Assembly (NCBI RefSeq): GCF_004010195.1
Contig: NC_057718.1
Coordinates: 72,882,978-72,915,963 of the forward strand
DNA: 32,986 nt
Source of the DNA: Chiloscyllium plagiosum
Lineage: Eukaryota
Reading direction: 5' to 3'
The first letter of the stretch is position 1; each line of letters begins with the position of its first letter. The notes under the pieces are model-generated. The model was not told the origin of the DNA. It saw only the letters and a program-made list of their open reading frames with translations, and searched no databases. Positions 125 to 32,986 of the stretch are shown here, in pieces. The position numbers were made by a program, and so were the translations under genes.

Positions 125-1095
125 CTACCATCGTTTGTGTGTAGCCGTGCTTCCTCACATCTTTCCTGAATGAAGGCAAAAGTGAGGACTGCAGATGCTG
201 GAGATTAGAGTGTGGTGGTGGAAAAGCACAGCAGGTCAAGCAGCATCTGAGGATGTTTTGGGCAAAAGACCTTTATCAGGAAGATTCCTGATGCCCGAAA
301 CTTAAATTCTCCTGCTCCTCGGATTCTACCTGACTTGTTGTGCTTTTCCAGCACCACACTTTCGACATCTTTCCTAATTCTAGCCCTAATTCTCAGATTA
401 TGCCCTCTATTTCTAGAATTCCCACCAGTGGAAATAGCTTATCTTTTCCAGTTAATATCTTGAAGATTTTGATAACATTGTGCTTTAGCCTTCTAAATTA
501 TAGAGAAAACAGGCCTAATTTGTATAATCTCTCCTCATAATAATCCCTGAAGTCCAGTTATAGTTCTTGTCAACCTACATTGTACTCTGTTCAAGGCCAA
601 TAAGGTGTGGTGCCAGGTCTGCTTACAGTAGTTAAAGTGGGGTCTAACCAAGTTTTGTATAACTGAAGCATACCTTCTGCATCTTTGTATTCCATCCACT
701 AGATATAAAGGGCAGCATTCCATTAGCTTTCTTTATTATTTTCTGTACCTGTTCATGGAATTTAAAGATCCATGCAACTCAACCCCCAGGTCTCTTTGGC
801 TATCCACTGTATTTAACTTCATACCTTCGAGAATGTACCCTCATCTATCCTTTTACAATCCAAAATGGATAACGTCACACTTGTTTACATTGAACTCCAT
901 CTACCTCAGTTTTTCCCAATCATTTAGTCTATCAATATCTCTTTGTAACTTTATGCTATCATCTACACTGTCTACAATGCCTCCTAGTGCAATTTTTGTC
1001 CAGACTGATTCTGCATTATAGCACTGATCTATTTTGTATAATAATTTTGTAAATAATCTTTGACATAAATTAGGAGAGCATAGAGGGACCATGGA
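125..1095 (-). mobile_element. Decayed CR1 LINE, RT C-terminal region (interrupted by 173-364)
   Basis: Minus-strand peptide TKIALGGIVDSVDDSIKLQRDIDRLNDW and LVRPHFNYC..W motif match CR1 ORF2; frameshifted. Confidence 0.75.
173..364 (-). mobile_element. Penelope-like family A fold-back (inverted-repeat) insertion
   Basis: Arms AGTGTGGTG..GGAAAAGCACAGCAGGTCA and TGAC..GTGCTTTTCCAGCACCACACT are reverse complements. Flanking direct repeat ACATCTTTCCT at 157-167 and 365-375. Degenerate hammerhead motifs at the centre. Confidence 0.8.
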
Positions 1096-1188
1096 AAATC
1101 ATTAGCAGACAATATTAAGAAAAATTCAAAGGCCTTTTATATGTATTAGAGCAAGAGGATTGCCAGGAAAGAATAAGGCCATTAAAGA

Positions 1189-1380
1189 GGAGAAAGTGAG
1201 GACTGCAGATCGGAGCTGATGTGTTGCTGGAAAAGAGCAGTAGTTCAGGCAGCATCCAAGGAGCAGAAGAATTGACGTTTCGGGCATGAGCCCTTCTTCC
1301 TCATTCCCGAAACGTCGATTCTCCTGCTCCTTGGATGCTGTCTGACCTGCTGTGCTTTTCCAGCAACACATTTTCAGTTC
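1189..1380 (-). mobile_element. Penelope-like family A fold-back insertion
   Basis: Inverted arms and terminus GGAGAAAGTGAGGACTGCAG. Perfect 14-bp TSD AAGGCCATTAAAGA at 1175-1188 and 1381-1394. Confidence 0.9.
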
Positions 1381-1722
1381 AAGGCCATTAAAGACCAATG
1401 TGTCAATCTGTGTGGAACCAAAATATCTGGCCAAGGTTTTAAGCGAATATTTGCATCAGCCTCTCCATAGAGAAAGATGATGTAGGTATAAAAATCAGTG
1501 TGGGTGTTGGACAGGATGTGCGGTGGTAAATGTGATACATTTGAATGAATTAGAACTAAGAAAGAGGAGGAATTAACAGTTGCAAATCCCCATTGCCAGA
1601 TGAGATGTATCCCAGGTTGTTACGGGAGACATTGTAGGGGCTAACGAGTTTTGAGAAGATTTGCAGCTCAGGTTGAGGTTCTGGTTGTAAGTTTGCTCGC
1701 TGAGCTAGAAGATTTGTTTTCA

Positions 1723-1756
1723 GACGTTTCATCACCATGCTAGGTAACATCATCAG
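1723..1756 (-). ncRNA. Minimal type-I hammerhead ribozyme motif (family C)
   Basis: Minus strand CUGAUGA-U-GUUACC(UAGCAU)GGUGAU-GAAAC-GUC; stem I UCA/UGA. Confidence 0.75.
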
Positions 1757-2160
1757 TGAGCCTCTGGTGAAGTGCTGGTGTTACATCCCACTTTCTATTT
1801 ATGTGTTTAGGTTTCCTGGGGTTGGTTATGTCATTTCCTGTGTTGGTGATGTCATTTCATGTTCTTTTTCTCAGAAGGTGGTAAATGGGGTCCAAATCGA
1901 TGTGTTTGTTGAAAGTGTTCTGTTTGGTATGCCATGCTTCTAGGGCTTTTTGTACGTGTATCTGTTTGGTTTGTCCTAGGATGGATATGTTGTCCCAGTC
2001 AAAGTAGTGTCCTTCTTCATCCGTATGTAAGGATACTAGTGATGGTGAGTCATGTCTTTTTGTGGCTGGTTGATGTTCATGTATCCTGGTGGCTAGTTTT
2101 CTGCCTGTTTGTCCAATGTAGCGTTTGTTACAGTTCTTGCAAGGTATTTTGTAAATGATG

Positions 2161-2372
2161 GCTGAAACTGTGTTGCTGGAAAAGCGCAGCAGGTCAGGCA
2201 GCATCCAAGGAGCAGGAGAATCGACGTTTCGGGCATGAGCCCTTCTTCAGGAAGAAGGACACATGCCTGAAACGTCGATTCTCCTGCTCCTTGGATGCTG
2301 CCTGACCTGCTGTGCTTTTCCAGCAACACATTTCAGCTCTGATCTCCAGCATCTGCAGTCCTCACTTTCTCC
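2161..2372 (+). mobile_element. Penelope-like family A fold-back insertion nested in the GIY-YIG domain of another PLE
   Basis: Inverted arms ending CTGCAGTCCTCACTTTCTCC. Perfect 16-bp TSD TATTTTGTAAATGATG at 2145-2160 and 2373-2388, which duplicates the IIYKI codons. Confidence 0.92.
2223..2250 (-). ncRNA. Minimal hammerhead ribozyme motif (family A), intact core
   Basis: Minus strand CUGAAGA-A-GGGC(UCAU)GCCC-GAAAC-GUC. Confidence 0.8.
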
Positions 2373-2869
2373 TATTTTGTAAATGATGTTTATTTTGCTT
2401 GTTGTCTGTATAGGGTCTTTTAAGTTCATTAGCTGCTGTGTGTTGGTGGGTTTGTGGGTTACCATGATGCCAAGAGGCCTGAGTAGTCTGGCAGTCATTT
2501 CCGAGATATCTTTGAGGTAGGGGAGAGTGGCTAGGGTTTCTGGTGAGTTTTGTCTGCTTGTTTGGGTTTGTTGCTGAGAAATTGGCGGACTGTGTTCATT
2601 TGCAGGGGTTCTTCAAATCCTCTCTAAACCACAAGAGGGATGCCAGAGAAGTGCTAACATTGTTCTATTATTCAAGAAGGGGTGGTGGGGATAAACCAGG
2701 ATATCAGCTACTGTGTCTAAAATTTCTGGTGGGGAAGCTATTGGAAAACATTCCGAGAGGCAGAATTAGGCTCCAATTAAATAGGCAAGGATTATTCAAA
2801 GATAATTAACATAAGGAGGAGATCATGTCTGACAAATCTAAATTTTTCGAGAAGGTCACTAGGTGTGTA

Positions 2870-3061
2870 TGATTTGGAGATGCTGGTGTTGGACTGGGGT
2901 GCACAAAGTTAAAAATCACACAGCGCCGGGTTATAGTCGAACAGGTTTATTTGGAAGCACTAGCTTTCAGAGTGCTACTCCTTCATCAGGTGATTGTCAG
3001 GTGCAGCACTCTGAAAGCTAGTGCTTCCAAATAAACCTGTTCGACTATAATCTGATTTTTA
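2870..3061 (-). mobile_element. Penelope-like family B fold-back insertion
   Basis: TTATAGTCGAACAGGTTTATTTGGAAGCACTAGCTTTCAGAGTGCT and its reverse complement. TSD ACTAGGTG(T/C)GTA at 2858-2869 and 3062-3073. Hammerhead motif on the minus strand at 2961-2989. Confidence 0.85.
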
Positions 3062-3324
3062 ACTAGGTGCGTAGATGAGCATAATTAAGATGATGTAGTC
3101 AACATGGACTTCAGTGTGCCTTTTGACAAGGCTTCATGGCAGACTGATCAATAAAGTAAGAACTAATGGGATCAACACAAATTTGGAATTTTGTAAACAA
3201 CATCCACTTAGCAGCTGAAAACAGAGGATGATGGTCAAACGTATTTTTGAGGCATGCCACAGGGTTGGTGCTGGGTCTATCGCTGTTTTAGTATATATTA
3301 ATTGCTCTGGGTTTGGTTGGAGTT

Positions 3325-4050
3325 TCTTTGGTGAGAGGTTGAATAATTTGGGTTTGTAATCATTGGAGCTTTGAAAACTAAAAAGCAACCTTATTGACAC
3401 ATAAGATTCTTAGTAAGTTTGAGAACATAGATTAGATTAGATTACTTACAGTGTGGAAACAGGCCCTTCGGCCCAACAAGTCCACACCGACCGGCCGAAG
3501 CACAACCCACCCATACCCCTACAATTACCCCTTTAATCTAACACTACGGGCAATTTAGCATGGCCAATTCACCTGACCCACATATCTTTGGACTGTGGGA
3601 GGAAACCGGAGCACCCGGAGGAAACCCACGCAGACACGGGGAGAATGTGCAAACTCCACACAGTCAGTCGCCTGAGTCGGGAATTGAACCCGGGTCTCTG
3701 GCGCTGTGAGGCAGCAGTGCTAACCACTGTGCCACCGTGCCGCCCATAGATGCTGATGGTTCTAGGCAAGTCTAGGATGAGAGGGTACGATCTCAGTAAG
3801 AGATCACCCATTTTAGAAAGAGATGAGAAGAAATCCTTTCTCTCAGAATGTAGTGAATCTGTGGAATTCTTTACTTCAGAGGACTGTTGAGGCTAAATCA
3901 TTAAGTATATTCAAGACAAGATAGAAGATTTCTAATCATGAAAGAATCAGAAATTAGGGGATAAGGCAGCAAAATGGAGTTGAGGATTATCAGATCAGAT
4001 TGGACTATCAGAGTAGCCTTCTTCTGTTACTATGACTTATGGTCTTATAA
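3325..4050 (+). mobile_element. CR1 LINE 3' end (interrupted by SINE)
   Basis: CR1 C-terminal FSQNVVNLWNSL motif (~3838-3873) and TATGACTTATGGTCTTAT tail. Confidence 0.7.
3433..3745 (-). mobile_element. Full-length HE1-type V-SINE (tRNA-derived)
   Basis: Minus strand GGGCGGCACGGTGGCACAGTGG (A box), GGTTCAATTCC (B box), V-domain GTGGAGTTTGCACATTCTCCCCGTGTCTGCGTGGGTTTCC and (AATCT)n tail. Possible short TSD ATAGAT. Confidence 0.92.
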
Positions 4051-4110
4051 TGCTTTTACAACTGTTGTACTCTGGGGTAAATCTTTTTATACATTGCTTT
4101 TTGTTTTCAG

Positions 4111-6372: not shown

Positions 6373-6594
6373 ATGGTTGATGGAATTTAACCATGACGAA
6401 TGATAAGATGTGCAAATTGGGTGGATTGGCCATGGTAAATGCAGAGCTATAGGGATGTTCTTCAGAGGGTTTGTGTAGACTCAATGGACTCAATGGCCAC
6501 TTTCCACACTGTAGGGATTCTATGATTCTATGAATGGGAAGTGCTGCACTTTGATAGAAGGAACAAGACGAGGGAGTACTCAATGCATGGCAAG
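6373..6594. repeat. 222-bp perfect inverted duplicate of 7590-7811
   Basis: Base-by-base reverse-complement identity; the ORF track gives the same peptide for both copies. Confidence 0.95.
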
Positions 6595-7270: not shown

Positions 7271-7651
7271 TCATAGAATCGTTCAGTCAAATCTGTACCA
7301 CCAAAAATATATTACTATCAACTCTAATTCCACTATCCAGCACTAGGTCCATAGCTTTGAATATTATGACAATTCACGTGTTCAGCAAAATATTTTTTAA
7401 TGGCTGTAAGGTTTCTTGCCTCAATTATCCTCTCATGTAATGCATTCCAGACCACTACCAATATTTGGATGAAAATATTTCCCTCAAATCCCCTCTCAAC
7501 CTCCTGCCTTTCACTTTAAAATTATACCAAATTAAGGGATCTGTGGGCAAGTACCTGAGATCCTTTTGTTTCTCTGAGCTTCCTAGTGTCTTGCCATGCA
7601 TTGAGTACTCCCTCGTCTTGTTCCTTCTATCAAAGTGCAGCACTTCCCATT

Positions 7652-7780
7652 CATAGAATCATAGAATCCCTACAGTGTGGAAAGTGGCCATTGAGTCCAT
7701 TGAGTCTACACAAACCCTCTGAAGAACATCCCTATAGCTCTGCATTTACCATGGCCAATCCACCCAATTTGCACATCTTA
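7652..7780 (-). mobile_element. HE1-related SINE 3' fragment nested in CR1
   Basis: CATAGAATCATAGAATCCCTACAGTGTGGAAA tail and CATGGCCAATCCACC resemble the HE1 3' part. Confidence 0.7.
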
Positions 7781-9112
7781 TCATTCGTCATGGTTAAATT
7801 CCATCAACCATTAACATGCCGATCCGATCAATCTATTTATATCCTCCTGTACCATAAGAAATTCTTCCTTACTGATATGTGCCTGACCAATCTTTGTGTT
7901 ACCTGCAAACTTACTCTCACATTCTATATTATTCATGAATTTTATAAACAATAAGGGATCCAGCACAGATCCCTGTGGTACACCACTGCACACCAGGCTC
8001 CAGGCACACAAACAGTCATCTGCAACTGCCCTCTGTCTCTTATAATTAAGCTAATTTTGGAACCATCTTGCCAAGTCACCCTGGATCCTTTGAGCTTTTA
8101 TCATCCTTACCAGTTTTGCATGTGGGATTTTGTCCTCATGTTTTCCTGAAATCCATATTACCTATACCTTCACCCTCATGCCTGCTCACCTCCACAAAAA
8201 TTTCCACCATTTTGTTCAAAGGCATGACCTCCTTCTGGTAAGGTTATGCTGATTATCTCTGATCAAACCATACCTCTTTAAATGGGGATTAATTTTCTCT
8301 TTCACTATTTTCTCAAGTAGTTTCCCTAACACTGATGTTAGATCACTTGTCTGTCATTCTCTGATCTATTGTAATCGCTTTTCCTGTAAAGTGGAACCAC
8401 ATTAGTTGTCTTTCAATTCTTTAGCACCTCCATTGCAGTCAGAGGTGATTTAAAATTTGGATAATGGCCCCTGTAATTTCCTCCCTCATCTCCCACAACA
8501 GTTTGGGATATGACTCATCTGGACTGGGGAATCTGCCTACTTTTAGATCCATCAAGTCCTCCAATACCTCCTCATTTCTTATTCTCAATCGGCTCAAGAC
8601 CTTCACAGTCCATCTTCTCAAATTCTGTACTTGGAATCTGCTTCTCCCAAGTAAAAATAGATGTGAAGTATTCATTTAACATTCTACCAATGTGCTCCAG
8701 CTTCACACACACATATTAGGTCGTACTATTTTCCTAGTTATTCTTTTCTCCATGGTATACTTATAGAACATCTTGGGATTCTCTCTTGTCTTGCTCGCCA
8801 ATGTTTTCCCATGCCCCTTCTTTGCTCTCCTAATTGTTTTATTGACCTCCTTCCTGCATGTCCTATAATCCTCCAGGGCCTCAGTTGTTTTGAACTCTTT
8901 ATCTCTGTTATATGCCTCTCTTTTCCATTTTATCCAATCCTGAATATTCTTAGACATCCATGGTTCTCTGGAATTGTTGGTCCTATTTTTCACCTTAAAG
9001 GGAACGTTCTGGGCCTGTAATCCTCCAGTATCTTTTTAATTGCCTCCCCCTGTTCAGCCTTGGATTTACCCTCAAGTAAATGTTCCCAATCTATTTTGGC
9101 CAGCTCCTGCCT

Positions 9113-9190
9113 TGTTGATGTAAAGCTGGAAATGCACAACAGGTTAGATAGCATCCGAGAAGCAGGAAAGTCAATGTTTCGGGCCAAAAC
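9113..9190 (-). mobile_element. Penelope-like family A fragment
   Basis: GCTGGAAATGCACAACAGG...AGCATCCGAGAAGCAGG...TTTCGGGC; ends within hammerhead stem II. Confidence 0.65.
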
Positions 9191-9985: not shown

Positions 9986-10515
9986 CCCACTTATCCCAGT
10001 TCCAACCTTCCAGCTCAGCACTATCCTCATGACCTGTCCCACCTAACAATCTTCCTTCCCACCTATCCGCTCCACTCTCCTCTCTGACCTATCACCTCCA
10101 TCCCCACCCCCATTCACCTATTGTACTCTTTGCTACCTTCTCCCCAGCCCAACCCCCCCATTTATCTCTCCACTCTGGAGGCTTACTGCCTCTATTCATG
10201 ATGAAGGGCTTTTGCCCGAAATGTCGATTCTCCTGCTCCTCGGATGCTGCCTGACCTGCTGTGCTTTTTCAGCACCACTCGGATCTAGACTCTGGTGTCC
10301 ACTTTTGCCTCACTTTTGCCTAGTTGAAGAAGTTCTCCTCTCTCCACAAGAATCTCAGTGAGTCTCTCTCTCACTGCAACCCCCAGGTCATCTCCTCTGC
10401 CCGAAAGCTCTTCAACCATGTACTGAAACAGACTCGCTACCACAGCCACACTTGCATCCTCAGTGCCTGCCTCCGTAACCAACTGTTCCCACATGGACTC
10501 CGGACTACATTCAAC
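9986..10515 (+). mobile_element. Penelope-like family A parent fragment: 3'UTR, hammerhead, pLTR end and start of ORF
   Basis: A pyrimidine-rich UTR and mutated hammerhead (ATGATGAAGGGCTTTTGCCCGAAATGTC, ~10198-10225) precede the family A arm. It runs into KLFNHVLKQTRYHSHTCILSACLRNQLFPHGL, resembling the PLE N-terminal H..FL..C....P.G motif. Confidence 0.75.
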
Positions 10516-10519
10516 GACA

Positions 10520-12690
10520 TAGCAAGTTGAGGAATAGAGAGAGAGAGGGAGGAGTTGAACACAGGACTACTGGGATTGTGCAGGAGGGAAGGTTTCGGAT
10601 ACCTGGGTAATTGGAGGTCATTCTTGAGTAGGTAGTCTACAGGATGGTGTACACCTGAACCAGAGGGGTACCAATATCCTGAGGGAGATGTTTGTTCATG
10701 CTCTTCAGGAGGATTTAAACTAATTCAGCAGGGGGATGGGAACCAAAATTGTAGTTTCAGTGTCCAGGAGGTTGAGAGTAGTGAGGTCAGAAATGAGTTT
10801 CCAAGGTCGCAAGAGTTCATCGGCAAGTAGGAAAGTGGTTTGAAGTGTGCCTACGTCAACGCTAGAAGGAGACATGAGAAATCATTGGCAGATAAGATCA
10901 AGGAAAACCCTAAAGATTTCTATAGGTATATCAAGAATAAAAGAATGACTAGAGAAAGATTAGGGCCAATCAAGGATAGTAGTGGGAAGCTGTACATGAA
11001 GTCCGAGGAGATGGGGAAGTGCTAAATGAATATTTTTCATCAGTATTCACACTGGAAAAAGACAATATTGTCAAGCAGAATACTGAGATAAGATGGGATT
11101 GAAGTTCACAAGGAGGAGGGGTCAGCAATTCTGGAAAATGTGGAAATAGGTAAGTCCCCTGGGCCAAATGGTATTTAACCTGGGATTCTCTGGGATGCCA
11201 GGGAGGAGAGTGCAGAGCCTTTGGCTTTGACCTTTATGTCATCATTGTCTACAGGAATTGTGCCAGAATACTGGAGGATCACAAAAATTGTCTCCTCAGT
11301 CAAGAAAGGGAATACAGCCAAGCCTGGTAATTATAGACCACTGAACCTTATTTCGATTGTGGGTAAAGTGTTGGAAAAGGTTATAAGAGTTAGAATTTAT
11401 AATCATCTAGAGAGGAATAAGTTGATTAGGGATAGTCAATGCAGTTTTGTGAAGGGTAGGTCATGTCTCACAAACCTTATTGAGTTCTTTGAAAAGGTGA
11501 CCAAACAGATGGATGAGGGTAAAGCGGTTGATATGGTGTATATGGATTTCAGTAAGGCTTTTGATAAGGTTCCCCATGGTTGGCTGTTGCGCAACATATG
11601 GAGGAATGGGATTGAGGGAGATTATGCAGTTTGGATCAGAAATTGGCTAGCTGAAAGAAGGCAGAGGGTGGTGTTTGATGGGAAATGTTCATCCTGGAGT
11701 TCAGTTACTAGTGGTGTACTGCAAGGATCTGTTTTGGGGCCACTGCTGTTTGTCATTTTTAAAAATGACCTGGATGAGGGTGTAGAAAGATGGGTTTGTA
11801 AATTTGTGGATGACACTAAGGTCGGTGGAGTTGTGGATAGTGCTGAAGGATGTTGCAGGTTTCAGAGGGACATAGAGGTGAGAGGAGAGCGCTGAGAGGT
11901 GGCAAATGGACTTTAATGTGGAAAAGTATGAGGTGATTCATTTAGGAAAGAGCAACAGGAATAAGGAGTATTGGGCTAATGGTAAGATTCTTGGTAGTGT
12001 ATATGAGCAGAGAGATCTCGGTGTCCATGTCCATAGATCCCTGAAAGATGCCACCTCGGTTGATAAGGTTGTTAAGAAGGCATACGGTGTGTTAGCTTTT
12101 ATTTGTAGAAGGATTGAGTTTTTGAACCACGAGATCATGCTGCAGCTGTATGAAACTCTGATGAGTCAACACTTGGAGTATTATATACAGTTATGGTCAC
12201 CGCATTGTAGGAAAGATGTGGAAGCTTTGGAAAGAGTTTAGAGGAGATTCACTAGGATGTTGCTTGGTATGGAGGGAGGGTCTTATGAGGAAAGGCTGAG
12301 GGATTTGAGGCTGTTTTTGTTAGAGAGAAGAAGGTTGAGAGGTGACTTAATTGAGATAGGATAATCAGAGGGTTAGATAGGATGGACAGTCAGAGTCTTT
12401 TTCCTCAGATGGTGTGGTTAGCACAAGGAGTCATAGCTTTAAATTGAGAGGTGATAAATATAGAACAGATGTCAGAGGTAGTTTCTTCACTCAGAGAGTA
12501 GTAGGGGTGTGGAATGCACTGCCTGCAACATTGGTAGACTCAAGGGCATTGACATGGTCATTGGATAAATATATGGATGAAAAGTAATAATGTAGGTTAG
12601 ATAAGCTTCAAATTAGTTCCATAGGTCAGCGCAACATTGAGGGCTGAAGGGCTTGGTCTGCGCTATAACATTCTATGTTCTATGTTCTGT
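10520..12690 (+). mobile_element. CR1 LINE with ORF1 esterase C-terminus, endonuclease-deleted ORF2, RT and 3' tail
   Basis: DGVHLNQRGTNIL (SGNH DxxH, from 10643), then LKCAYVNAR fused to RRHEKSLADKIKENPK. RT motifs MDFSKAFDKVPH, QGSVLGPLLF and FVDDTK; (TTCTATG)n tail. Confidence 0.92.
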
Positions 12691-16632: not shown

Positions 16633-17496
16633 GGCAAGAAGTTTGGTGGAGGGATGAGTATTTGGATAAAAGTAACGTGCAAGGCTAGGGGGGGAAAGCA
16701 GGGAATTGATACCAGCTTACCATATTAGAAAAATTAAAACCCATCTTAAAGATAACTTACAATTTTTTTTCTGTGGGGAGGTATGATGGAGGTGCATGAA
16801 ATATTATAATTATTTGGAAACGTGGATTCTGAAATGGACAGAATCATTGTAAATCTGATTTGTATTTTTATATTGTGTGTGTGTTAAGAAGAGAGTGACA
16901 TAGTTTAGTTTTATTTTGAAGTATTGTGTATGGTGCAGGATTATTTGAAATTTTGTCCACATGCATCAAAATGACTCCTTTGCCATCTTTGAATTGAGTA
17001 GTTCAGGGCATTAGAAACAAGGTTAGAAGAGGAAAGACCCACTATTGTTTAGCAACAGGAGCCCCAAAGCACAAAAAACATCAGGCAATCTGTACAGATT
17101 CAGCCAGACAGAAAAACTGCATAATTTTAGCAGTCTTCCAAAGGTCAGGAATAAAAGTCTTGAATGACTCAAGAAAAAAATTTGGAGCAGCAAACCACTG
17201 GAATCTGAAAATAACCGATGTACATGCTCTGAAAGTATTTAGACGTTCATTGCAGGAAAGTTCCAGAAACCAATTACAGCCATCCCAATTGAATTAGGAA
17301 CTTTAAATTGGAGACAGGGTAACCCTTTCACTGATCTTTGAATATCTGTAAGATTGTTATTCGGAGTAAAAGAGTTGATTTTCTATTTTTGACATTAGAT
17401 CTTTTCAATCAATATAATGTAAAATAGTTTTGATTTTTTTCTCTTTTTGTATATAATAAACATTGTTCTTTTGTTAAAGTACATTGACAACCATTG

Positions 17497-17678
17497 GGAG
17501 AAAGTGAGGACTGCAGATGCTGGAGATTAGAGCTGAAAAATGTGTTGCTGGAAAAGTGCAGCAGGTCAGGCAGCATCCAAGGAGCAGGAGAATCGACATT
17601 TCAGGCATAAGCCCTTCTTCAGGAAGGGCTTATGCCCGAAATGTCGATTCTCCTGCTCCTTGGATGCTGCCTGACCTC
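17497..17678 (-). mobile_element. Penelope-like family A fold-back insertion
   Basis: Inverted arms centred on CCCTTCTTCAGGAAGGG. 15-bp TSD CATTGACAACCA(T/C)TG at 17482-17496 and 17679-17693. Confidence 0.9.
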
Positions 17679-18886
17679 CATTGACAACCACTGACTGACC
17701 ACAACAGTAATCAGATAGCAAAAATGAAACTTATGGCCTTTCAAGCCAAGTCAAACTTTACAATGATTTGACCATTATTGTTATATTCTAGCATCATAGT
17801 ATCTTTACTAGAGTAGCACTCATTGAATTTGAGTGATCTGTAAATCTTTAAAAACAAGTATGTTAGGTATTGAGATCACGCAGACAGAAGCACTGTTGTG
17901 AAGTATATTACATGGATTTGAATTTCAAAATAACTTTGACTGTTGCTAAAACTTTTCTCAAAGTGGAAATGATCACAGTGAATAATTTAAAGACATGAAG
18001 TAAAATACAGAAAGCAAATGATTCTGACATGTTCAGCCCATTGTATTAAATTTTTTTAACGGATGGATCCTGAGTTCAGAGAGCAGTGTCAAACAGCTTG
18101 GTGAAAGCTATGTAATACCATTTTTGAATTTGAATTTCAAAATGGAGGCTGTTATGTGTTAATTCTGAGAGCGAGTTTCTTTATTAAGAAACCAGATCAG
18201 TGGATCCATTCAAAGCAATGATTAAAAACAATATTTTGTCAGAGAGCAGGTGATAGTGGATCCTATAATGTTAATGGAAAGATATTTATACTTTTGGATT
18301 TATCCAGTACACATGTAACACTTTTAGCTTTGTTTTCAGTTCAATAGGAATTAGAATGAACAAGGTTTCTTTTTATAAATTCAGTTTAGAAGATTCCAGT
18401 GTTAAGTTTAGAGGTCAGTTTAGTTCTCACCTAGAAGCAATTCAGGGAACAAGTTATCCTCAGCAGTTTAATTTGTTAAACGTTTCAAGCCAGAAGAATT
18501 TGGTTAGACGTCTCCTGGTTATTGAAACTGAGAAAATTTCAACTTTCAGATTTATAAGAAATTCATGCTGACAGATTTAGAAAGGACTAATTGAATCAAC
18601 TTCTTTGTCTACGGCAAAGCACCTGGAGAAGTCAGTTAAGTAGAACCCTAAATAGTTGCAATGAGGGCGACAATTTCTCTGGATTTGAGTCTGTGTAATG
18701 GCTAGTGTTGGGAAACAGTTTGAAATCATTCTAACTGTATATATTTAGACAGTTTGTATTTTAAAAAGCAATATTTATTTTTGTATGAGAAACTGGTGTT
18801 TTGTCATTTAATACAAAAGGCAGAGCTGAAAATGTGTTGCTGGAAAAGCGCAGCAGGTCAGGCAGCATCCAGGGAACAGGAGAATC

Positions 18887-18914
18887 GACGTTTCGGGCAT
18901 AAGCCCTTCTTCAG
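18887..18914 (-). ncRNA. Minimal hammerhead ribozyme motif (family A), intact core
   Basis: Minus strand CUGAAGA-A-GGGC(UUAU)GCCC-GAAAC-GUC. Confidence 0.8.
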
Positions 18915-18916
18915 GA

Positions 18917-19091
18917 NNNNNNNNNNNNNNNNNNNNNNNNNNNNNNNNNNNNNNNNNNNNNNNNNNNNNNNNNNNNNNNNNNNNNNNNNNNNNNNNNNNN
19001 NNNNNNNNNNNNNNNNNNNNNNNNNNNNNNNNNNNNNNNNNNNNNNNNNNNNNNNNNNNNNNNNNNNNNNNNNNNNNNNNNNNNNNNNNNN
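18917..19091. other. Assembly gap (175 N)
   Basis: Run of N. Confidence 1.
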
Positions 19092-19095
19092 ATTC

Positions 19096-19123
19096 CTGAA
19101 GAAGGGCTTATGCTCGAAACGTC
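19096..19123 (+). ncRNA. Minimal hammerhead ribozyme motif (family A), intact core
   Basis: CUGAAGA-A-GGGC(UUAU)GCUC-GAAAC-GUC, with one G-U pair in stem II. Confidence 0.78.
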
Positions 19124-19339
19124 GATTCTCCTGTTCCCTGGATGCTGCCTGACCTGCTGCGCTTTTCCAGCAACACATTTTCAGCTCTGATCTCCAGTAT
19201 CTGCAGACCTCACTTTCTCCTAATACAAAAGGCGCCCTCATGTGAATATTGCTCAGTGACTAATCACAACTTTAATTAATTAAACAATAAAATGTGTTCT
19301 ACCAAGCCAGATTTCATTCTGAGATGTGACTTTTACATC

Positions 19340-21272: not shown

Positions 21273-22168
21273 TGTACTATAAAGCAAAGGTTGACCTCCC
21301 TCTGTAAACTAAAACCCGAACTCCCAAAGAGGTGTGCCTCACCCTAGAATCTGTAAAAGGAGTATGAAAAGTGGTGTAACTTGCTCTTCATCAATTTCTA
21401 GGAGTTAAATAAAAATAATTCCCTGACACCCACTTTAAACTCAACAAGTAACAATTTAGTTATCTAACTCTAACAGTGAACAAATTAACTAAATTATTAA
21501 CAAGTTGAAACTTTATTGCTGGAACAGCACAGCAGGTCAGGCAGCATCCAGGGAACAGGAGATTCGACGTTTCGGGCACAGGCCCTTTCTAACTTCTAAT
21601 ATTCCCAAATAAAACAAGATTCTGATGGCATGCTGTTCCAGTAAATATAAGTCCTCTTATATACATAAAAAAACAAGTCTCTTGAAATGACAGCCAGACT
21701 ACGTGTCTTCTAGAATGTCCTGTGCCTCCTCCATCAACTCTTCTGTCAGTAATGCTTTTCTGCTCAGATTCTTCTGTCAGGAATGCCTTTTTCTATTGTT
21801 GATATGTTTTTTTTAGATGATTGTGAGAGCCAATTTCTCTTTCAAGAAAGAGAGCTGAGGGGCATTAGCTCTTGTGGATGGCAGCTTGCTCTGGGGACTT
21901 TGTCCAACTGCCCCCTTCTTTTATATCCTTGATGACATATCAGTTTCTTATAATAAGATTGGTCTTATGTTGTCAAAACCATCAGATTTAAATTTAATAG
22001 GTTTTTGATATTTAAGTGCCTGGTTTAAGTTGAATGAGTAAACGTAAAGGGACTGGAAAGAGTTGTCTTGGTATAAACTGCTGCTTGGCCTGCTAAATGT
22101 ATGGTCTTTTGAAGCAAATGTTTCAGTTCAGGTGTTCTCTAATCCTGCAAACTTTAAAGCTGCTCACA
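21273..22168 (-). mobile_element. Possible solo LTR
   Basis: Begins TGT and ends ACA, starting where gypsy RT homology stops. Minus-strand CCAAT (21958-21962) and TATAAAAG (21918-21925). No TSD seen. Confidence 0.3.
21504..21586 (-). mobile_element. Penelope-like family A fragment
   Basis: TTGCTGGAACAGCACAGCAGGTCAGGCAGCATCC...GACGTTTCGGGCACAGGCCCT; stops right after hammerhead stem II. Confidence 0.8.
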
Positions 22169-22172: not shown

Positions 22173-22583
22173 TGATTTGGAGATGCTGGTGTTGGACTGG
22201 GGTGTACAAACTTAAAAATCACACAACACCAGGTTATAGTCCAACAGGTTTAATTGGAAGCACTAGCTTTCGGAGTCCCACTCCTTCATCAGGTGGTTGT
22301 GGAGGACACAATTGTAAGACACAGAATTTATAGTAAAAGTTTACAGTGTGATGTATACATTGAAAAATACCTTGATTGTTTGATGAGTCTTTCATCTGTT
22401 AAAATGCCATGATAGTTTTACTTCTTTCATATGTAAATCACAAAACGTTTTTTTAAGAGTTACATTCTCAGGTTAACTGTAAGAATTGGTGTTAGCCAGA
22501 TAATATGTTGAAGGTGTTAGCCCCCTGTGTTCTCTGTCTGTGCCATAATGTTTAGACTGATTCTAATCTAAAAAGTGAGTTAG
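22173..22583 (-). mobile_element. Penelope-like family B 3' end with UTR
   Basis: Same terminus TGATTTGGAGATGCTGGTGTTGGACTGG as 2870 and 26683; contains a hammerhead motif. Confidence 0.8.
22264..22292 (-). ncRNA. Minimal hammerhead ribozyme motif (family B), intact core
   Basis: Minus strand CUGAUGA-A-GGAG(UGGGA)CUCC-GAAAG-CUA; stem I CAC/GUG. Confidence 0.78.
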
Positions 22584-22887
22584 CACTTTTGATTGATTAC
22601 AAAAAGCTGATTTGGTCATAAATCTGAGAAGAAGTGTTTTTGTCAAAGCAGAAATAACTTAATTGATCCACATAGGGCCAAGACCATACAGCCAAATAGG
22701 GTCTAAAGAAACAAAAGTAACGGCTATCTTGAATCTCATTGTGCCTAAGAGTGACTAGATTTTATTAGATGTTTATTCCAAATTTCATCACCACAGTGCC
22801 TCTTTTCACAAATATGTTTGTTAAAAGGTAGAAAATTCACACTGATGAAGGAATATCTGATAAATCATCTTTGCATTCTTTCAATAG

Positions 22888-23353: not shown

Positions 23354-23357
23354 CAGC

Positions 23358-23576
23358 CAAGAGAGTGGTGCTGGAAAAGCATAGCAGGTCAGGTAGTATC
23401 CGAGAAGCAGGAAAATCGATGTTTTGGGCAAAAACCCTTTATCAGGAAGCCCTGATGAAGGGCTTTTGCCCAAAACGACGATTTTTCTGCGCCTTGAATG
23501 CTACCTGACCTGCTGTGCTTTTCCAGCACCACACTCTTGGCTCTAATCTCCAGCATCTGCAGTACTCACTTTCACC
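23358..23576 (+). mobile_element. Penelope-like family A fold-back insertion
   Basis: Inverted arms centred on ATCAGGAAGCCCTGAT. 16-bp TSD TCTATGACT(C/T)TACAGC at 23342-23357 and 23577-23592. Confidence 0.88.
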
Positions 23577-24886: not shown

Positions 24887-25986
24887 TTTTTTCTTCTTTT
24901 TAGGAAATTCGGAGTCCCCTTTTTTTTATCCCTTACCTCTACACCACCGCCTAACTGCGGCAGTGCTTATATTTTCCCCAGCACCCATGTTGTGTGTGTG
25001 TGTGCAGGTGTGAGACATAGTGAAAAACACAAGGTATACAAATCTTTATTCAATTTCCACCACCAGGAAAAATGGAAACACCAGGGTGACCAGTGACAAG
25101 CAGTGCTCTTCTCAGAGGGCAATGCTGCGTGATTAGACAGTGAAGGGGAGGGCAGGAATTAAATCAAAATAGAGTTGGAGGGGGAAATAATACACTCCAC
25201 TCCCTGTGGTGCCCACCTTTCCCTGAAAATCTCAAGATTGTTGGTGGACATCGCATGCTCCTTTGGAGCATCATTCCTGATGAAGGGCTTTTGCCTGAAA
25301 CGTCGATTTTCCTGCTCCTCGGATGCTGCCTGTGACCTGCTGTGCTTTTCCAGCACCACTCTGATCTAAACTGGTTTCCAGCATCTGCAGTCCTCACGCG
25401 TGCTCCTTCTCCAGAGACACCTGGTCTCTGACATAACCGCAGAAGACGGGCAGGCAATCGGCCATAACGACCCCCTCCATGGCCCACTGCTTGGATCTGT
25501 TTATGGCCAGTTTGGCCAGGCCCGGGAACAGACCCACGAGAAGGTCCTCTGACGTACCCTCTCCTCTCCAGATTGGGTGGCCAAAGATCAGGAGCGTTGG
25601 ACTGAAGTGCAACCTAAAACAGAGGAGGAGGTTTTCTAAAAAATCAAAAAGGGAGTGTAAGCCCTCACACCCAATGTATACACAGGACCGCAGAACAAGC
25701 AGTTGGGCTGGGAGTTTGTGAACCACCGCAATCTGCTGTTGCAGGGGACTGCCACATGCAGCACCCTCCACCCCAGATCCCTGAGAGAAAGGGAGGGACT
25801 CCCACGTAGAGAGCCCTCCACTGGGCATTCCGAGAACCGGGTGGCAATGGGCATGACAAAGCGTGTCCGGGTGGTGGATGAGGAGAAGAGGTGGACGGTG
25901 TGCAGTAGCAGTCTGTACAGGAACCGCCATTTTATGTCCCTAAAAGGGGACAAAACTAAAACTCCGGAGGCAGCTCAGACTGTGGG
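24887..25986 (-). mobile_element. 5'-truncated Tx1-clade LINE (ORF2 C-terminus, 3'UTR, poly A)
   Basis: Minus-strand DLGWRVLH, CLFCG zinc-knuckle remnant, GLAKLAINRSKQ and FRERWAP. Perfect 15-bp TSD GAAGAATTCTATTCT at 24872-24886 and 25987-26001. Confidence 0.85.
25272..25397 (+). mobile_element. Penelope-like family A single-arm insertion with hammerhead (25277-25304)
   Basis: CTGATGA-A-GGGC(TTTT)GCCT-GAAAC-GTC followed by the family arm. TSD CGC(A/G)TGCTCCTT at 25252-25263 and 25397-25408 duplicates the KEHA codons of the Tx1 ORF. Confidence 0.85.
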
Positions 25987-26346: not shown

Positions 26347-27051
26347 TAGGTAGTTCTGGGATAACGCTCATTTCAGCAGTGCGATTTGGCTATAATGTCA
26401 CTGAAGAATTAGGGAACAATATTTTCGAGAACGTTTCCCTCCATTTGCAATAGCGCGATTCTATAGCACGATTGCCCGGTTCATTCTGCGCATGCATTGG
26501 TGACCACGCTGTTCTGCTCATGCTCGATTTCAGGACCGGTCTTAGTGCATGAATGTCAGCTGCTGAAAAGGCAGCTTTCTGTGAGAGGTACTGTACAGAC
26601 AACAGCATTCTTACATTTTTAAAATGTACTGTGTTAAATTTACTTTTGTTTTGTTAATAAATATGACTTCAACCTTCATTCATAATTTAGAGATGGCGGT
26701 ATTGGACTGGGATGTACAAAGTTAAAAATCACACAACACAACAGGTTTAATTGGAAGCACTAGCTTTCAGAGCGCAGCTCCTTCATCAGGTGATTTTGGA
26801 GTATAAGATCGTAAGACACATAATTTATAGCAAAAGTTTAGTGTGTTGTAACTGAAATGATATATTAAAAAAGACCTGGATTGTTTGTTAACCTTCATTC
26901 AGGCTGTGTTATACTTTGGGTGATTTTTGAGTGATCAAGAGTGTTATTTTTTATTGGTCTGCCACACCCCCACTTTTCCCATTGGCCCCATTATTTCTAT
27001 TAAACTAGATTTTGCAGGAATGCAACTGCGGCATTATGGGAGAACTATCTG
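26347..27051. mobile_element. Non-autonomous Tc1/mariner (Tigger/pogo-like) DNA transposon remnant
   Basis: Degenerate 21-bp TIRs TAGGTAGTTCTGGGATAACGC and GCATTATGGGAGAACTATCTG, flanked by TA on both sides. Confidence 0.55.
26683..26889 (-). mobile_element. Penelope-like family B 3' end
   Basis: Family B terminus and hammerhead motif at 26761-26789 (minus). Perfect 12-bp TSD AACCTTCATTCA at 26671-26682 and 26890-26901. Confidence 0.85.
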
Positions 27052-27139
27052 TATTACAAATTGGGTGACTGTTTAGAATCACTACCCTTGTTTTCTGCCC
27101 CTTGGTGTTTCTAAGCTCAACCCATGTGAATTCTAAATA

Positions 27140-27273
27140 AAATCCGAAAGAACTGCGGATCCTGTAAATCAGAAACAAAAATAGAAATGGCTGAAAATGC
27201 TCAGCGGGTCTAGCGGCATCGATGAAGAGAAATTAGAGTTAACATTTCAAGTCCAGTGACCCTTCCTCAGAAC
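27140..27273 (-). mobile_element. Penelope-like family D 3' end with degenerate hammerhead (27241-27270)
   Basis: Minus strand CUGAGGA-A-GGGUC(ACUG)GACUU-GAAAU-GUU, followed by a GATGCCGCTAGACCCGCTGAGC motif related to family A GATGCTGCCTGACCTGCTG. Confidence 0.7.
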
Positions 27274-27444
27274 CTGTAGATTCTATTTCATCAGAGTTAA
27301 TATTCTTCCTCCTCATAACCACATTAATTTATTTCTTATTCAGCAGAGCAACCCCACCTCCTTTTTATTTTTGTCTGTCTTTTCTAAAAACTGAAAACCT
27401 TTGGATATTCTGTTCCCATTCCTAGTCATCCTGCAGCTATTGGC

Positions 27445-28039: not shown

Positions 28040-30250
28040 ACATAGAGTCACAGAGATATACAGCACAAAATCACACCCTTCAGTCCAACTCATCCATGCT
28101 GACCAGATATCCTATATAAACCTAGTCCCTATTGCCAGCACTTGGCCCATAGCCTCAAAATCCTTCCTATTCATATGAGCATCCAGGTGCCTTTTAACTG
28201 TTGTAATTTTACCACCCTCCACCATTTCCTCTGGCAGCTCATTCCATACATGCACCACGCTCTGAGTGAAAAGGTTGCTCCTTTGGTCCCTTTTATATCT
28301 TTCCCCTCTCACCTTAAGATTAGATTAGATTACTTACAGTGTGGAAACAGGCCCTTCGGCGCAACAAGTCCACACCGCCCCGCCGAAGCGCAACCCACCC
28401 ATACCCCTACATTTACCCCTTACTTAACACTACGGGCAATTTAGCATGGCCAATTCACCTGACCTGCACATCTTTTAGACTGTGGGAGGAAACCAGAGCA
28501 CCCGGAGGAAACCCACGCAGACACGGGGAGAACGTGCAAGCCTATGATTTCTAGTTTGGACACCCCTATTCCAGGGAAAAGACCTTGTCTAATTACCCTA
28601 TGCATGTCCCTCATGATTTTATAAATGTCTATAAGGTTACCCCTCAGCCTCTGACACTCCAGGGAAAATAGCCCCAGCCTATTCAGCCTCTCCCTATAGC
28701 TCAAATCCTCCAACCCTGGCAACATCCTCATAATCTTTTTTTGAATCCTTTCAAGTTTCACAACATCCTTCCCATAGGAGGAAGACCAGAATTGCATGCA
28801 ATACTCCTGACGTGGACGAACCAATGTCCTGCCAAGTCCTATACTCAATGTACTGAACCAATAAAGGCAAGCATACCAAATGCCTTCTTCACTATCCTAT
28901 CCACCTCCACTTTCAAGGAACAATGAACCTGCACTCCAAAGTCTTATTGTTCAGCAACATTCCCCAGGACCTTACTGTTAAGTGCATCAGTCCTGCCCTG
29001 ATTTGCCTTTACAAAATGCAGCACCTCATGTGTATCTTAATTAAACTCCTCAGCCCATTGGCCCATCTGATCAAGATCACATTGTGTTCTGAGGTAACCT
29101 TCTTCGCAGTCCACTACACCTCCAATTTTAGTGTCATCTGCAAGCTTACGAGCTATACCTCCCATGTTCATATCCAAATCATTTATATAAATGACAAAAA
29201 GCAGTAGGCCCAGCACCGATCCTTGTGACATATCGCTGGTCACGGGCTTCCAGTCTGAAAAGACTTCTCTCCCTCATCAATTCTCTTTGCTACTTCTTTA
29301 AAAAACTCAATCAAGTTTGTAAGACATGATTTCTCACACACAAGGCCATGTTGACTATCCCTAATCACCCCTTCCATTTTGAAATACATGTACATCCTGT
29401 CCCTCAGGATTCCCTCCAACAACTTGCCCACCACCAATGTCAGGCTCACCAGTCTATAGTGCCCTGGATTTTCCTTACCACCTTTCTTAAATAGTGGCAC
29501 CATGTTAGCCCATCTCCAGTCTTCTGGCACCTCACCTGTAGCCATCCATGATACAAGCAAGGGGCCCAGCAATCACTTCTCTAGCTTCCCACAGAGTTTG
29601 AAGGTACACCTGATCAGGTCCCAGGGATTTATCCACTTTTATGCATTTCAATACCTTCAGCACCTCCTCCCCTGCAATATGTACATTTTTAAAGAAGTTG
29701 CTATTTATTTCCCCATGTTCTCTATCTATCCATATCCTTCACACAGTAAACACTCATGCAAAATATTAATTTACTATCTTCTCCATCTCCACACATAGGT
29801 GGCCTTGCTGATCTTTAAGGGGCCCTATTCTCTCCCTACTTATCCTTCTGACCTAAATATATTTGTAGAATCTCTTTGGATTCTCCTTAACACTATTCTC
29901 CAAAGACATTTCACATCCCCTTTTTTGCCCTCCTGATTTCCATCTTAAGTATACTCCTCCTGCCTTCTTCTAAGGATTCACTTGATCCCTGCTGTCTAGA
30001 CCTCACATATGCTTCCTTCTTTTTCTTGACCAGAACCTCACTTTCTCTAGTCATCCAGCATTTCCTATACTTAACAGCCTTGCCTTTCATCCTGACAGGA
30101 ATGTACTGTGTCTGGATTCTCATTATCTCATTTCTGAAGGCTTTCCATTTTCCAGGTGTCCCTTTACCTGTGAACATCTAATTCCAATCAATGTTTGAAA
30201 GTTATTGCCTAATACCGTCAAAATTGGTCTTCCTCCAATTTAGTACTTTA
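28040..30250 (-). mobile_element. CR1/HER1-like LINE ORF2 (tether, RT, 3' end) with internal deletions
   Basis: PEDWRWANMVPLFKKG, QGSVLGLLLFVIYINDLD, LADDTK, LGLFSLE..RLRG; CATAGAGTCA tail. Confidence 0.9.
28317..28539 (-). mobile_element. 5'-truncated HE1-type V-SINE
   Basis: Near-identical to 3433-3650; (AATCT)n tail. Confidence 0.9.
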
Positions 30251-30252
30251 AC

Positions 30253-30384
30253 TTTTAGAATTAGAATTAGAATCCCTACAGTGTGGAAACAGGCCCAACA
30301 AGTCCTCCGAACAGTAACCCAGCCAGACCCATTCCCCTATCCTATATTTTCCCCTGACTAATGCATCTAACCTACACATCCCCC
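30253..30384 (-). mobile_element. HE1-related SINE 3' fragment
   Basis: (TAGAAT)n tail followed by CCCTACAGTGTGGAAACAGGCCC. Confidence 0.7.
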
Positions 30385-30530
30385 AGCTGCTGCTCCAGCT
30401 CCTAACCATTGGGCTTCCAGCACTGCAGCTGGGGACACTCCCCTCACACATGCTGGCTCAGGTACCGGAACTGTGCCTGGCTTCCCACATAGGGCAGGAA
30501 AGAACATACCATGGTCTTGAGCCCTCCTTT
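30385..30530 (-). mobile_element. CR1 ORF1 N-terminal zinc-finger/coiled-coil remnant
   Basis: Minus-strand, frameshifted SCPMWE...HVC..CPQLQ...ELEQQL. Confidence 0.55.
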
Positions 30531-30624
30531 CATCTTTTATACCTTTGACTTAAATGTCCTTAAATTTAAACTACATTATTTCTATGTCCTTCTACTCTAG
30601 ATCTCTGAAGTATAGCCCTTAGAA

Positions 30625-32605
30625 AACGAACAAAGAACAGGACAGCACAGTGGGCGGCACGGTGGCACAGTGGTTAGCACTGCTGCCTCGCAGCGCCAGA
30701 GACCCGGGTTCAATTCCCGACTTAGGCGACTGACTGTGTGGAGTTTGCACGTTCTCCCCGTGTCTGCGTGGGTTTCCTCCGGGGGCTCCGGTTTCCTCCC
30801 ACAGTCCAAAGATGTGCAAGTCAGGTGAATTGGCCATGCTAAATTGCCCGTAGTGTTAGGTAAAGGGGTAAATGTAGGGGTATGGGTGGGTTACGCTTCG
30901 GCGGGTCGGTGTGGACTTGTTGGGCCGAAGGGCCTGTTTCCACACTGTAAGTAATCTAAAAAAAAAAGAATAGGCCCCTTCAGCCCACCAAGACTGCGCT
31001 GACACATTATGCGATTCTAAACTGAAAACCTTTTGCCTCTATGTTGTCCATGTCCCTTTATTCCCTGACTATACATATATATCTGTCAACATATCTCTTA
31101 AATGTTTCTATTGTATCCACCTCCACTACCTCTAGTGGCACATTCCAACACTTATCACCCTCGATGGAAGAAAAACCCACTTTTCACATCTCCTTTAAAC
31201 TTACCTCCTTTTACCTTAACCCTTGTCCCCTAATAATTGATATTTCTACCCTTGGAAAAAGATTCCAGCTATCTATTCTATCCATTCCTCTCATCATGTT
31301 GTAAACTTCTATCAGGTTGCCCACATCTTTCAATGTTTCAAGCGAAAACAAACAAGTTTGTACAATCTGTCCTCATAGCTAAAACTCTTCAAACAATACA
31401 ATATCCTGGTAAACCATTTCTGCACCCCCTTCAAAACCTCCACAGCCTTGTGCAGTGTGGTGACCAGAACTACACACAATTTTCCAAATATAGTCCAACT
31501 GAAGTTCATTACAGCTGCAACATCGCGTGCCCCAACCAATGAAGGCAAGCAAGCTATATGCCTCCTTGATCACTTTATTGACTTGTGTTGCCACTTTCAG
31601 GGAACTGTGGACCTGGAGATCCTTTTGAATATTGATGCTACTATGGGTTCTGCCATTTAATGTAAACTTCCCTTTGCATTAGATCTCCCAAAATGCATCA
31701 CCTCAGATTTGTCCAGATTTAACTCCATCTGCCATTTCTCCACCAAAGTATCCTGCTGTATCCTCTGGCAGTCCTCCTCATTATCTGCAACTCCTCAAAT
31801 CTTTGTGTCATCTGCAAACTTACTAATCAGGCCATTTACATTAAGCTCCAAGTCATTTATTTTTATTATAAACAATAGGGATTCCAGCATTGATCTCTGC
31901 AGAACGCCACTGGTCACAGATCTTCAGTCAGAAAAACAGCTTCCACCATTACTCTCTGTTTTCTGTAACTAAGCCCTCCTCTATCCATCCCACCATGGAT
32001 CTCATGTGACTTCACCATTTGTATCAGCCTACCATGAGGGACCTTGTCAAAAGTCTACTCAAATCTATATAGACAAAATCTACTGCCCCACCCTCATCAA
32101 TAATCTTTGTCACTTCCTCAGAAAACTCAATTAAGTTTGTGAGACACAACCTTCCCCATTCAAAGCCATTTTTCCAAATGTGAGCAAATCCTATTTCTAA
32201 CAATCTTCTCCAATAATTTCCCTACAACAGATGTAAGGTTCACCAGCCTGTAATTTCCCAGATTATTCCTGCTATCCTTCTTAAACAATGAAACAATGTT
32301 GATTGTTCTCCACCTCTCAGGACCTCTCCTGTGACAAAAGGAGATGCAAAGATTTCATACAAGACCCAGGCAATTGTTTCATTTGCTTCCCTCAGCATTC
32401 TGGGATAGACCCATCAAGTTCTGGGACTTGTCTACCTTATTTCTTTTTTAAAACATCCAACACCTCATCTGTTTTTATATAGATAAGCCTCAGAATATCA
32501 ACATATCTTTCCTGAGACCCCGCCATCCACCACATCCTTCTGCTTTGTGAATATCTATGCAAAGTATTCATTAAATACCTCATCCACTTCCTCTGGCTCC
32601 TTTCA
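30625..32605 (-). mobile_element. CR1 LINE ORF2 RT and 3' end (SINE inserted in tail)
   Basis: Minus-strand FADDTK (~31800-31818), FDKVPHG (~32032-32052) and SYEDRL motifs. Confidence 0.85.
30652..30967 (+). mobile_element. Full-length HE1-type V-SINE
   Basis: GGGCGGCACGGTGGCACAGTGG A box, GGTTCAATTCC B box, V-domain, CR1-like tail ending AATCT plus A10; CpG-rich, suggesting a young copy. Confidence 0.93.
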
Positions 32606-32606
32606 T

Positions 32607-32986
32607 AAAATGTGTTGCTGGAACAGCGCAGCAGGTCAGGCAGCATCCAGGGAACAGGAGAATCGATGTTTCGGGCATAAGCCCTTCTTCAGGAATGAGG
32701 AAAGTTTGTCCAGCAGGCTAAGATAAAAGGTAGGGAGGAGGGACTTGGGGGAGGGGCGTCGGAAATGTGAAAGGTGGAAAGAGGTCAAGGTGAGGGTGAT
32801 AGGTCAGACTGGGGTGGGGGCGGAGAGGTCAGGAAGACGATTGCAGGTTAGGAAGGCGGTGCTGAATTTGATGGATTTGACTGAGACAGGCTGGGAGGAG
32901 GGGAAATGAGGAAACTGGTGAAATCCGAGTTTCCAGCAATACATTTCCAGCTCTGATCTCCAGCATCTGCAGACCTCACTTTCTCC
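32607..32986 (+). mobile_element. Penelope-like family A insertion with long inverted arm
   Basis: Inverted arm 32607-32930 (hammerhead on minus ~32665-32692 plus ~240 nt of UTR) joined to a short direct arm ending CCTCACTTTCTCC at the last base of the window. Confidence 0.85.

Follow-up and report, generated by a model that had tools for sequence, protein, structure and literature searches.

Eight palindromic insertions in a 32,986-nt stretch of the Chiloscyllium plagiosum genome (NC_057718.1, positions 72,882,978 to 72,915,963; hereafter the window) are, with high confidence, heavily 5′-truncated ends (stubs) of endonuclease-bearing (EN+) Penelope-like elements (PLEs). We further consider it fairly probable that these stubs were built anew at each landing by twin target-primed reverse transcription, a route in which both target strands prime a complementary DNA (cDNA). 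The window is vertebrate repeat-rich DNA, and its nearest named protein relatives come from carpet sharks (Chiloscyllium, Hemiscyllium, Stegostoma, Rhincodon). The evidence consists of the eight palindromes and the solo copies in the window, public contigs over positions 1-3400, protein searches, and published papers. An earlier interpretation from the letters alone (the sequence-only reading) had attributed the insertions to PLEs and to target-primed synthesis at insertion, and both attributions are supported here.

Self-BLAST and a repeat finder recovered seven inverted repeats (173, 1189, 2161, 2870, 17497, 18822, and 23358, named by approximate start), and family BLAST recovered the arms of 32607. 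All eight are real, and their density is as claimed, 8 per 33 kb or about 1 per 4 kb. Family A, taken with its sister subfamily A′, accounts for seven copies, and the remaining one (2870) is of family B. Arms were aligned in sense orientation, and inner ends were counted from the first C of the hammerhead core. In the list below, the tail arm reaches the long family terminus, the short arm stops before it, the tail is the difference, and TSD denotes the target-site duplication.

168..364 (173), A′ palindrome: tail arm left (sense on the minus strand), short arm right; arm ends -3 and -4 with a 1-nt G insert at the center; 11-13 nt deletions in both arms; tail 37-38 nt; main stem 59 pairs; TSD 157-167 / 365-375 (11 bp).
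1189..1380, family-A palindrome: tail arm left to core +3, short arm right from -10; 3-nt TTC overlap; 18-nt deletion through the hammerhead in the short arm; tail 33 nt; main stem 74 pairs; TSD 1175-1188 / 1381-1394 (14 bp).
2161..2372, family-A palindrome: short arm on the left, ending at -3, and tail arm on the right, beginning at +3, with GAA shared between them; tail 35 nt; main stem 84 pairs; TSD 2145-2160 / 2373-2388 (16 bp), repeating five GIY-YIG-motif codons of an older family-C PLE.
2870..3061, family-B palindrome: tail arm left, short arm right; own hammerhead CUGAUGA...GAAAGCUA; tail 37 nt; main stem 58 pairs; TSD 2858-2869 / 3062-3073 (12 bp, 1 mismatch).
17494..17678 (17497), family-A palindrome: tail arm on the left, ending at -3; short arm on the right, beginning at +6 and stopping 65 nt before the long terminus; arms overlapping by GAA; main stem 55 pairs; TSD 17482-17493 / 17679-17690 (12 bp), with 3 extra nt at the tail end.
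18822..19220, family-A palindrome: arms 99% alike; center hidden by an assembly gap of 175 N (18917-19091); tail 32 nt; main stem 94 pairs with the gap left out; TSD 18809-18821 / 19221-19233 (13 bp).
23358..23575, A′ palindrome: short arm on the left, ending at -3, and tail arm on the right, beginning at -1, with GC inserted between them at the center; tail 34-37 nt; main stem 83 pairs; TSD about 23341-23357 / 23576-23592 (14-17 bp, 1 mismatch).
32605..32986 (32607), asymmetric family-A palindrome: short-start arm of about 324 nt, of which about 238 nt are PLE terminal repeat (pseudo-long terminal repeat, pLTR) lying upstream of the hammerhead; tail arm limited to about 57-67 nt, its terminus coinciding with the window end; tail 37-39 nt; main stem 36 pairs.

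In all eight copies both sense 3′ ends lie at the target, in a head-to-head arrangement. The claim that seven insertions carry their own TSD was borne out, with 11-17 bp in 7 of 7 testable elements. Among 1478 random spacing-matched sites, from which the real elements were not removed, 22 reached the same score of at least 9. The stem of about 90 bp named in the sequence-only reading holds as an upper end and not as a typical value: main stems range from 36 to 94 pairs, and at least 83 pairs are found in only three of the eight. The fold of 2161 reaches -167 kcal/mol (z -21.6).

One arm always runs to the family terminus, as the arm alignment shows for 8 of 8 copies. The terminus quoted for family A (...CTCACTTTCTCC) is present in five of seven copies and absent from 173 and 23358, which as A′ members end in TTTTGCC and TTTCACC. 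The inverted arm, described earlier as varying in length, has a nearly fixed outer end: in seven of eight copies it falls 32-39 nt before the long terminus, 17497 being the exception. Uniform draws placed seven of eight shortfalls inside an 8-nt window once in 200000. Each palindrome also pairs one tail end with one non-tail end, an outcome with a probability of 0.004 if ends were independent at p = 0.5. In three public DNA runs, loose contig ends cluster at 2372-2374 (763-1176 records per place) and at 2869 (520-624), both from incomplete counts, showing that the position of the long termini is constant outside this window too. Public-contig depth, which runs to tens in unique bins and to millions over the arms, does not measure copy number and is read here only as very abundant. 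An exact 33-nt arm pattern had no match in viral, prokaryote-genome, or metagenome contigs.

These end positions resemble those of known PLEs. PLE tails are in general 30-40 bp and often present at one end only (Craig et al. 2021, PMC8557442), and Adineta PLEs carry a 31-bp tail on one of two inverted pLTRs with TSDs of 8-10 bp (Arkhipova et al. 2013, PMC3846280). In vitro, reverse transcription on an Anolis PLE starts at two internal sites, 111-118 nt into the open reading frame (ORF), which bound the tail (PMC11167929). The long terminus in the window lies 122 nt from the corresponding triplet of the core. By inference from the Anolis work, the short arm would begin at the second known PLE start site, and the overhang would be the published 30-40 nt tail.

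At the inner ends, the statement that each center differs holds for all seven visible centers, the center of 18822 being hidden in its gap. The description of the insertions as hammerhead-centered stood only in part. It fails for 32607, whose arms meet with one at about -238 and the other at about +69 relative to the core, and a recognizable core is kept in only five of the eight copies. Among family-A inner ends, 10 of the 12 determined fall within -10 to +6 of the core (18822 arms left out), and in four arms the stop is precisely at -3, which belongs to the outer strand of helix I. The junctions show 3-nt overlaps in 1189, 2161, and 17497 and 1-2 nt inserts in 173 and 23358. Further centers from other loci appear among the 15 contig joints listed of 5496, namely 2253 to 2331 (5, 5, and 6 contigs), 2252 to 2301, 253 to 2295, and 2253 to 2219; the highest depth of any joint listed is 1137, against millions over the arms. 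Hammerhead cleavage was rejected as the cause of the centers, as none of the 12 determined arm ends lies at the predicted site (+28/+29).

A pattern scan found minimal type-I hammerhead cores in five of the eight palindromes and in solo copies of four families. Core boxes, helix II, and a palindromic ACGU/AGCU were recognized; helix I is weak in family A. Rfam gave no hammerhead match up to E = 1 for these minimal hammerheads, and single-arm RNAs folded no better than their shuffles (z 0.74, -1.39, -0.60, and 1.68), a result not used as evidence. The minimal motif is thought to act as a dimer, and a poor single-arm fold is expected. A microRNA (miRNA) precursor was considered for the hairpins and rejected, the Rfam matches of 37-40 bits lying under gathering cutoffs of 61-89 and reflecting hairpin shape. 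These subthreshold matches (2191-2308, 2951-3035, 17594-17648, and 23412-23485) are a likely source of false shark miRNA calls.

The link to PLEs does not depend on end structure only. Read-through, solo, and older copies of the same kind are present in the window.

10000..10525, plus strand: A′ read-through copy with pLTR, hammerhead, and terminus, followed by the N-terminus of a PLE ORF (10324-10512).
25265..25396, plus strand: solo A′ stub starting at core -6 and reaching the long terminus; 12-bp TSD (1 mismatch).
21503..21587, minus strand: solo family-A stub ending at the short terminus, with its 5′ end near core +7; no TSD found.
9125..9188, minus strand: decayed solo A′ stub; no TSD found.
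22176..22600, minus strand: solo family-B copy with longer upstream sequence.
26686-26887: second solo family-B copy; 12-bp TSD.
1640..2620, minus strand: family-C fragment of an older PLE that retains the GIY-YIG-coding end, the 3′ region, and a minimal hammerhead of its own (core 1756); the 2161 copy inserted into it.
27135-27275, minus strand: stub of a fourth family, D, with core CUGAGGA at 27270; the match appears to begin a few bases upstream of the core; no TSD found.

Among solo copies, starts lie at -6, near +7, and near +17, with one copy reaching far upstream. The ORF of the 10000-10525 copy is 75-80% identical to shark proteins P0001 and P0002. A search with P0001 gave 59 representatives, including the full-length, 882-aa P0027 (E 5.7e-7, 29% identity), which matches in its N-terminus and is the only one of 13 longer matches scanned that has a GIY-YIG domain. 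This chain removes for A′ the objection that no PLE ORF is linked to the arm, and the link extends to family A via the arm similarity of about 85%. P0027 also has the CX2-5CxxC linker before that domain. The GIY-YIG part of family C scored a Pfam E of 8e-4, below the cutoff, and a tblastn E of 1.5e-7. The search for an autonomous parent with GIY-YIG and reverse transcriptase (RT) domains, as proposed with the sequence-only reading, returned no close full-length one, P0027 being distant. Five shorter candidates of 277-481 aa all lacked RT, leads from the ESM Atlas were HEAT/TOG-like only and were set aside, and the parent search had no match in PDB.

Several features around the read-through copy were also observed. 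The A′ terminus (10306-10330, plus strand) coincides with the ORF start of the shark relatives (MPSLKK-type), and a TAG after a pyrimidine tract gives it a splice-acceptor-like appearance. Family A may be non-autonomous or spliced. An 85-bp inverted pair of 76% identity (9896-9979 / 10651-10734) brackets the 10000-10525 fragment. The shark gene models P0001, P0002, and P0004 ("mucin-2-like", "uncharacterized", and "prostatic acid phosphatase-like") contain the PLE ORF N-terminus and are probably misannotated or chimeric repeat models.

Twin priming would proceed as follows. The GIY-YIG endonuclease would nick both strands 11-17 nt apart, the spacing seen in the TSDs. Each 3′-OH would then start a minus-strand cDNA on the element RNA at its pLTR/ORF junction; an outer start site would serve one and an inner start site, about 35 nt away, the other, as the observed end positions suggest. 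Both cDNAs would usually stop at the 5′ edge of an uncleaved hammerhead, where the arm ends are found; a template RNA that begins at this edge is the probable cause. The cDNA 3′ ends would be joined via the observed 3-nt microhomologies or 1-2 added bases and filled in, probably by end joining of the polymerase-theta type. Both arms are joined to the target by the end at which reverse transcription starts, as two primed minus strands would give. The Anolis PLE protein cleaves and extends both target strands and is predicted to dimerize (Frangieh et al. 2024, PMC11167929), and hammerhead cleavage is not required there (PMC11167929).

A fold-back origin, as the inverted second-strand event of the sequence-only reading implied, is a less likely alternative. 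Here a cDNA primed at the long start site would run off near the hammerhead, snap back on a 3-nt stem, and extend along its own sequence as far as the inner site; a variant, proposed for PLEs by Arkhipova et al. (2013, PMC3846280), has the self-priming take place on an antisense template. In 17497, folding of the cDNA end ...CTTCTTCAGGAA around a 5-nt loop is feasible and gives exactly the observed junction. The short arms of 17497 and 2870 lie inside their tail arms, four arms stop at exactly -3, the two arms of a copy share subfamily letters, and those of 17497 share a CpG-type change. Such containment, which fold-back requires, fails by 1-2 nt in 173, 2161, and 23358, by 7 nt in 1189, and by about 238 nt in 32607. 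The short arms of 32607 and 1189 include upstream sequence that is missing from their tail arms, and since each arm holds sequence that the other lacks, twin priming is favored over fold-back for them. This mutual non-containment amounts in 32607 to about 238 nt against 39 nt. The additional sequence is element-derived: over 50 nt it matches the upstream portion of the 10000 copy at 76%, and the same six letters open the loose-end consensus behind 2253. The joints 2253 to 2331, 2252 to 2301, and 253 to 2295 also speak against fold-back, with the partner arm at the hammerhead edge and the opposite arm much shorter, as far as arm identity is partly visible. Fold-back would moreover need a separate reason for the stop 32-39 nt short of the terminus. 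Target-primed building stood, and the fold-back step fits only some copies, 32607 and 1189 pointing to two separately primed first strands. An arm nearest-neighbor comparison showed matching subfamilies but does not separate the models.

It is improbable that longer inverted structures formed first and acquired their centers and short lengths by later loss. Long palindromes are prone to central deletions, microhomology-flanked deletions lie near the centers of 173 and 1189, and 18822 may be longer inside its gap. Against this, solo copies, in which no hairpin forms, likewise start at the hammerhead edge (-6 for 25270, near +7 for 21508), and the stop at exactly -3 recurs in four independent arms. 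Descent from one palindromic master moved by a DDE transposase (a MITE, or miniature transposable element with inverted repeats, or a fold-back DNA transposon) would suit the size of about 200 bp, the long inverted arms, the lack of coding capacity, and the very high copy depth, but it is largely refuted and very unlikely: TSD length varies from 11 to 17 bp, the termini are not inverted, with one end overhanging by 32-65 nt in 8 of 8 copies, the seven visible centers all differ with no dominant joint among those listed, and solo copies and a read-through into a PLE ORF exist. The earlier view that the insertions are not copies of one master thus finds support in the varied TSDs, the differing centers, and the one-sided overhang.

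Some observations weigh against our account. No intact autonomous parent was present among 139 candidates of at least 812 aa. In P0027, GIY-YIG scored above the cutoff and RT was recognized by motif pattern only, with no Pfam RT family. Family A lacks an ATG where the A′ relatives start. The sample is only eight copies from a single window. Post-insertion deletion can mimic non-containment, and such deletions occur near the centers of 1189 and 173. The sole case of large non-containment, 32607, runs to the last base of the window and has no flank for a TSD. Fold-back would fully account for the junctions of 17497 and 2870, and it misses those of 173, 2161, and 23358 by only 1-2 nt. No empty site was found among the 15 of 5496 contig joints listed. 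In its place stands the 16-bp TSD of 2161, which duplicates five codons of the older family-C ORF; this ORF is otherwise in one frame across the 2161 site. No obvious target motif was seen by eye at the nicks.

The copies also differ in age. Arms are 99% alike in 18822, compared with about 80-86% to the reference in 173 and 23358, so the process was active over a long time. Contigs from organisms A, B, and C bridge the right junction of 2870, which makes this insertion shared and old.

The architecture of inverted pLTR, one-end tail, and TSD is already published (PMC3846280, PMC8557442; summarized in PMC8969392). As there described, EN+ PLE insertion units share with the shark copies the head-to-head inverted pLTR, the 30-40 nt one-end tail, a variable TSD, heavy 5′ truncation, and a palindromic or overlapping inverted junction. 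The shark copies differ in lacking a body, with both arms being 55-130 nt stubs that meet at the hammerhead, in their longer TSDs (11-17 versus 8-10 bp), and in their density of about 1 per 4 kb. Poseidon of Anolis carolinensis (PAc, PMC11167929) likewise has two RT start sites bounding a tail about 120 nt downstream of the core, an uncleaved RNA template, and extension of both strands; inverted insertions are not derived in the available part of that paper. Unlike in Poseidon, the A′ ORF seems to start at the terminus and not inside the hammerhead, and the distant relative P0027 carries a CX2-5CxxC linker as in Neptune/Nematis, a feature missing from Poseidon. The origin of PLE inverted pLTRs and tails has been called unresolved in two papers (Craig 2021, PMC8557442; Frangieh 2024, PMC11167929).

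Metazoan PLE minimal hammerheads (Cervera and De la Peña 2014, PMC4209133) share the core boxes, the extra nucleotide before helix II, G10.1-C11.1, and the palindromic 15.2-16.2, and are mostly solo. Dual motifs on opposite strands lie 100-700 bp apart in Schistosoma (PMC4209133), whereas the shark motifs abut or overlap; the word "shark" is absent from the main text of that paper. Non-LTR retrozymes (Li et al. 2026, 10.64898/2026.07.22.740005) are likewise non-coding, hammerhead-bearing, PLE-derived, and abundant. They are defined by head-to-tail tandem units, and this class was rejected for the window, where family BLAST found only head-to-head pairs with individual TSDs and solo copies. Searches by title and abstract, a scope without subscription papers, Repbase, and supplements, gave no account of shark PLE palindromes or of PLE twin priming.

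Twin priming itself has a precedent in L1. There, as reportedly described by Ostertag and Kazazian in 2001, two target 3′-OH ends prime cDNA, which is joined at short microhomology and flanked by a TSD. The two primed ends, the microhomology join, and the TSD are common to both systems. L1 arms copy different parts of one RNA, giving an inversion, whereas PLE arms copy the same region, giving a palindrome.

Other repeats were noted in the window. A 222-bp inverted duplication (6373-6594 / 7590-7811) of an old-looking repeat is 100% identical, 995 nt apart, and has no obvious TSD in its flanks; it is either a recent template-switch duplication or an assembly artifact. A 96-bp inverted copy of 93% identity (13426-13521 / 14023-14118) lies inside a long stretch resembling a long interspersed element (about 12800-15750), which we take to be L1/Tx1-like. 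Three copies of a short interspersed element with a tRNA-like head, 94-97% alike, lie at 3437-3746, 28325-28540, and 30651-30959 and are presumably of the elasmobranch HE1 type. The decayed AT-rich stretch at 19400-20900 looks by eye, from its motifs, like a remnant of Gypsy-type integrase/pol.

For annotation, these hairpins should be filed as PLE stubs and not as MITEs or miRNA hairpins. They also have value as a natural data set, holding both ends and the junction within 200 bp, bounded by TSDs, in very many copies. Twin priming versus self-priming and the role of the uncleaved hammerhead thereby become countable from short copies. More speculatively, and in our view doubtful as a whole, palindrome formation may be programmed. 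A dimeric ORF protein would have to use one outer and one inner start site, in line with the mixed ends of all eight copies, and the hammerhead would serve not as a cutter but as a 5′ cap or an RNA-RNA dimerization handle, through the palindromic ACGU of helix III, presenting two short templates. The two cDNAs would then both finish at helix I, on its outer edge (-3/-4). If this were true, PLEs of at least two families would supply 55-95 bp hairpins throughout the genome, and these could feed the ADAR, Dicer, or Piwi-interacting RNA (piRNA) pathways.

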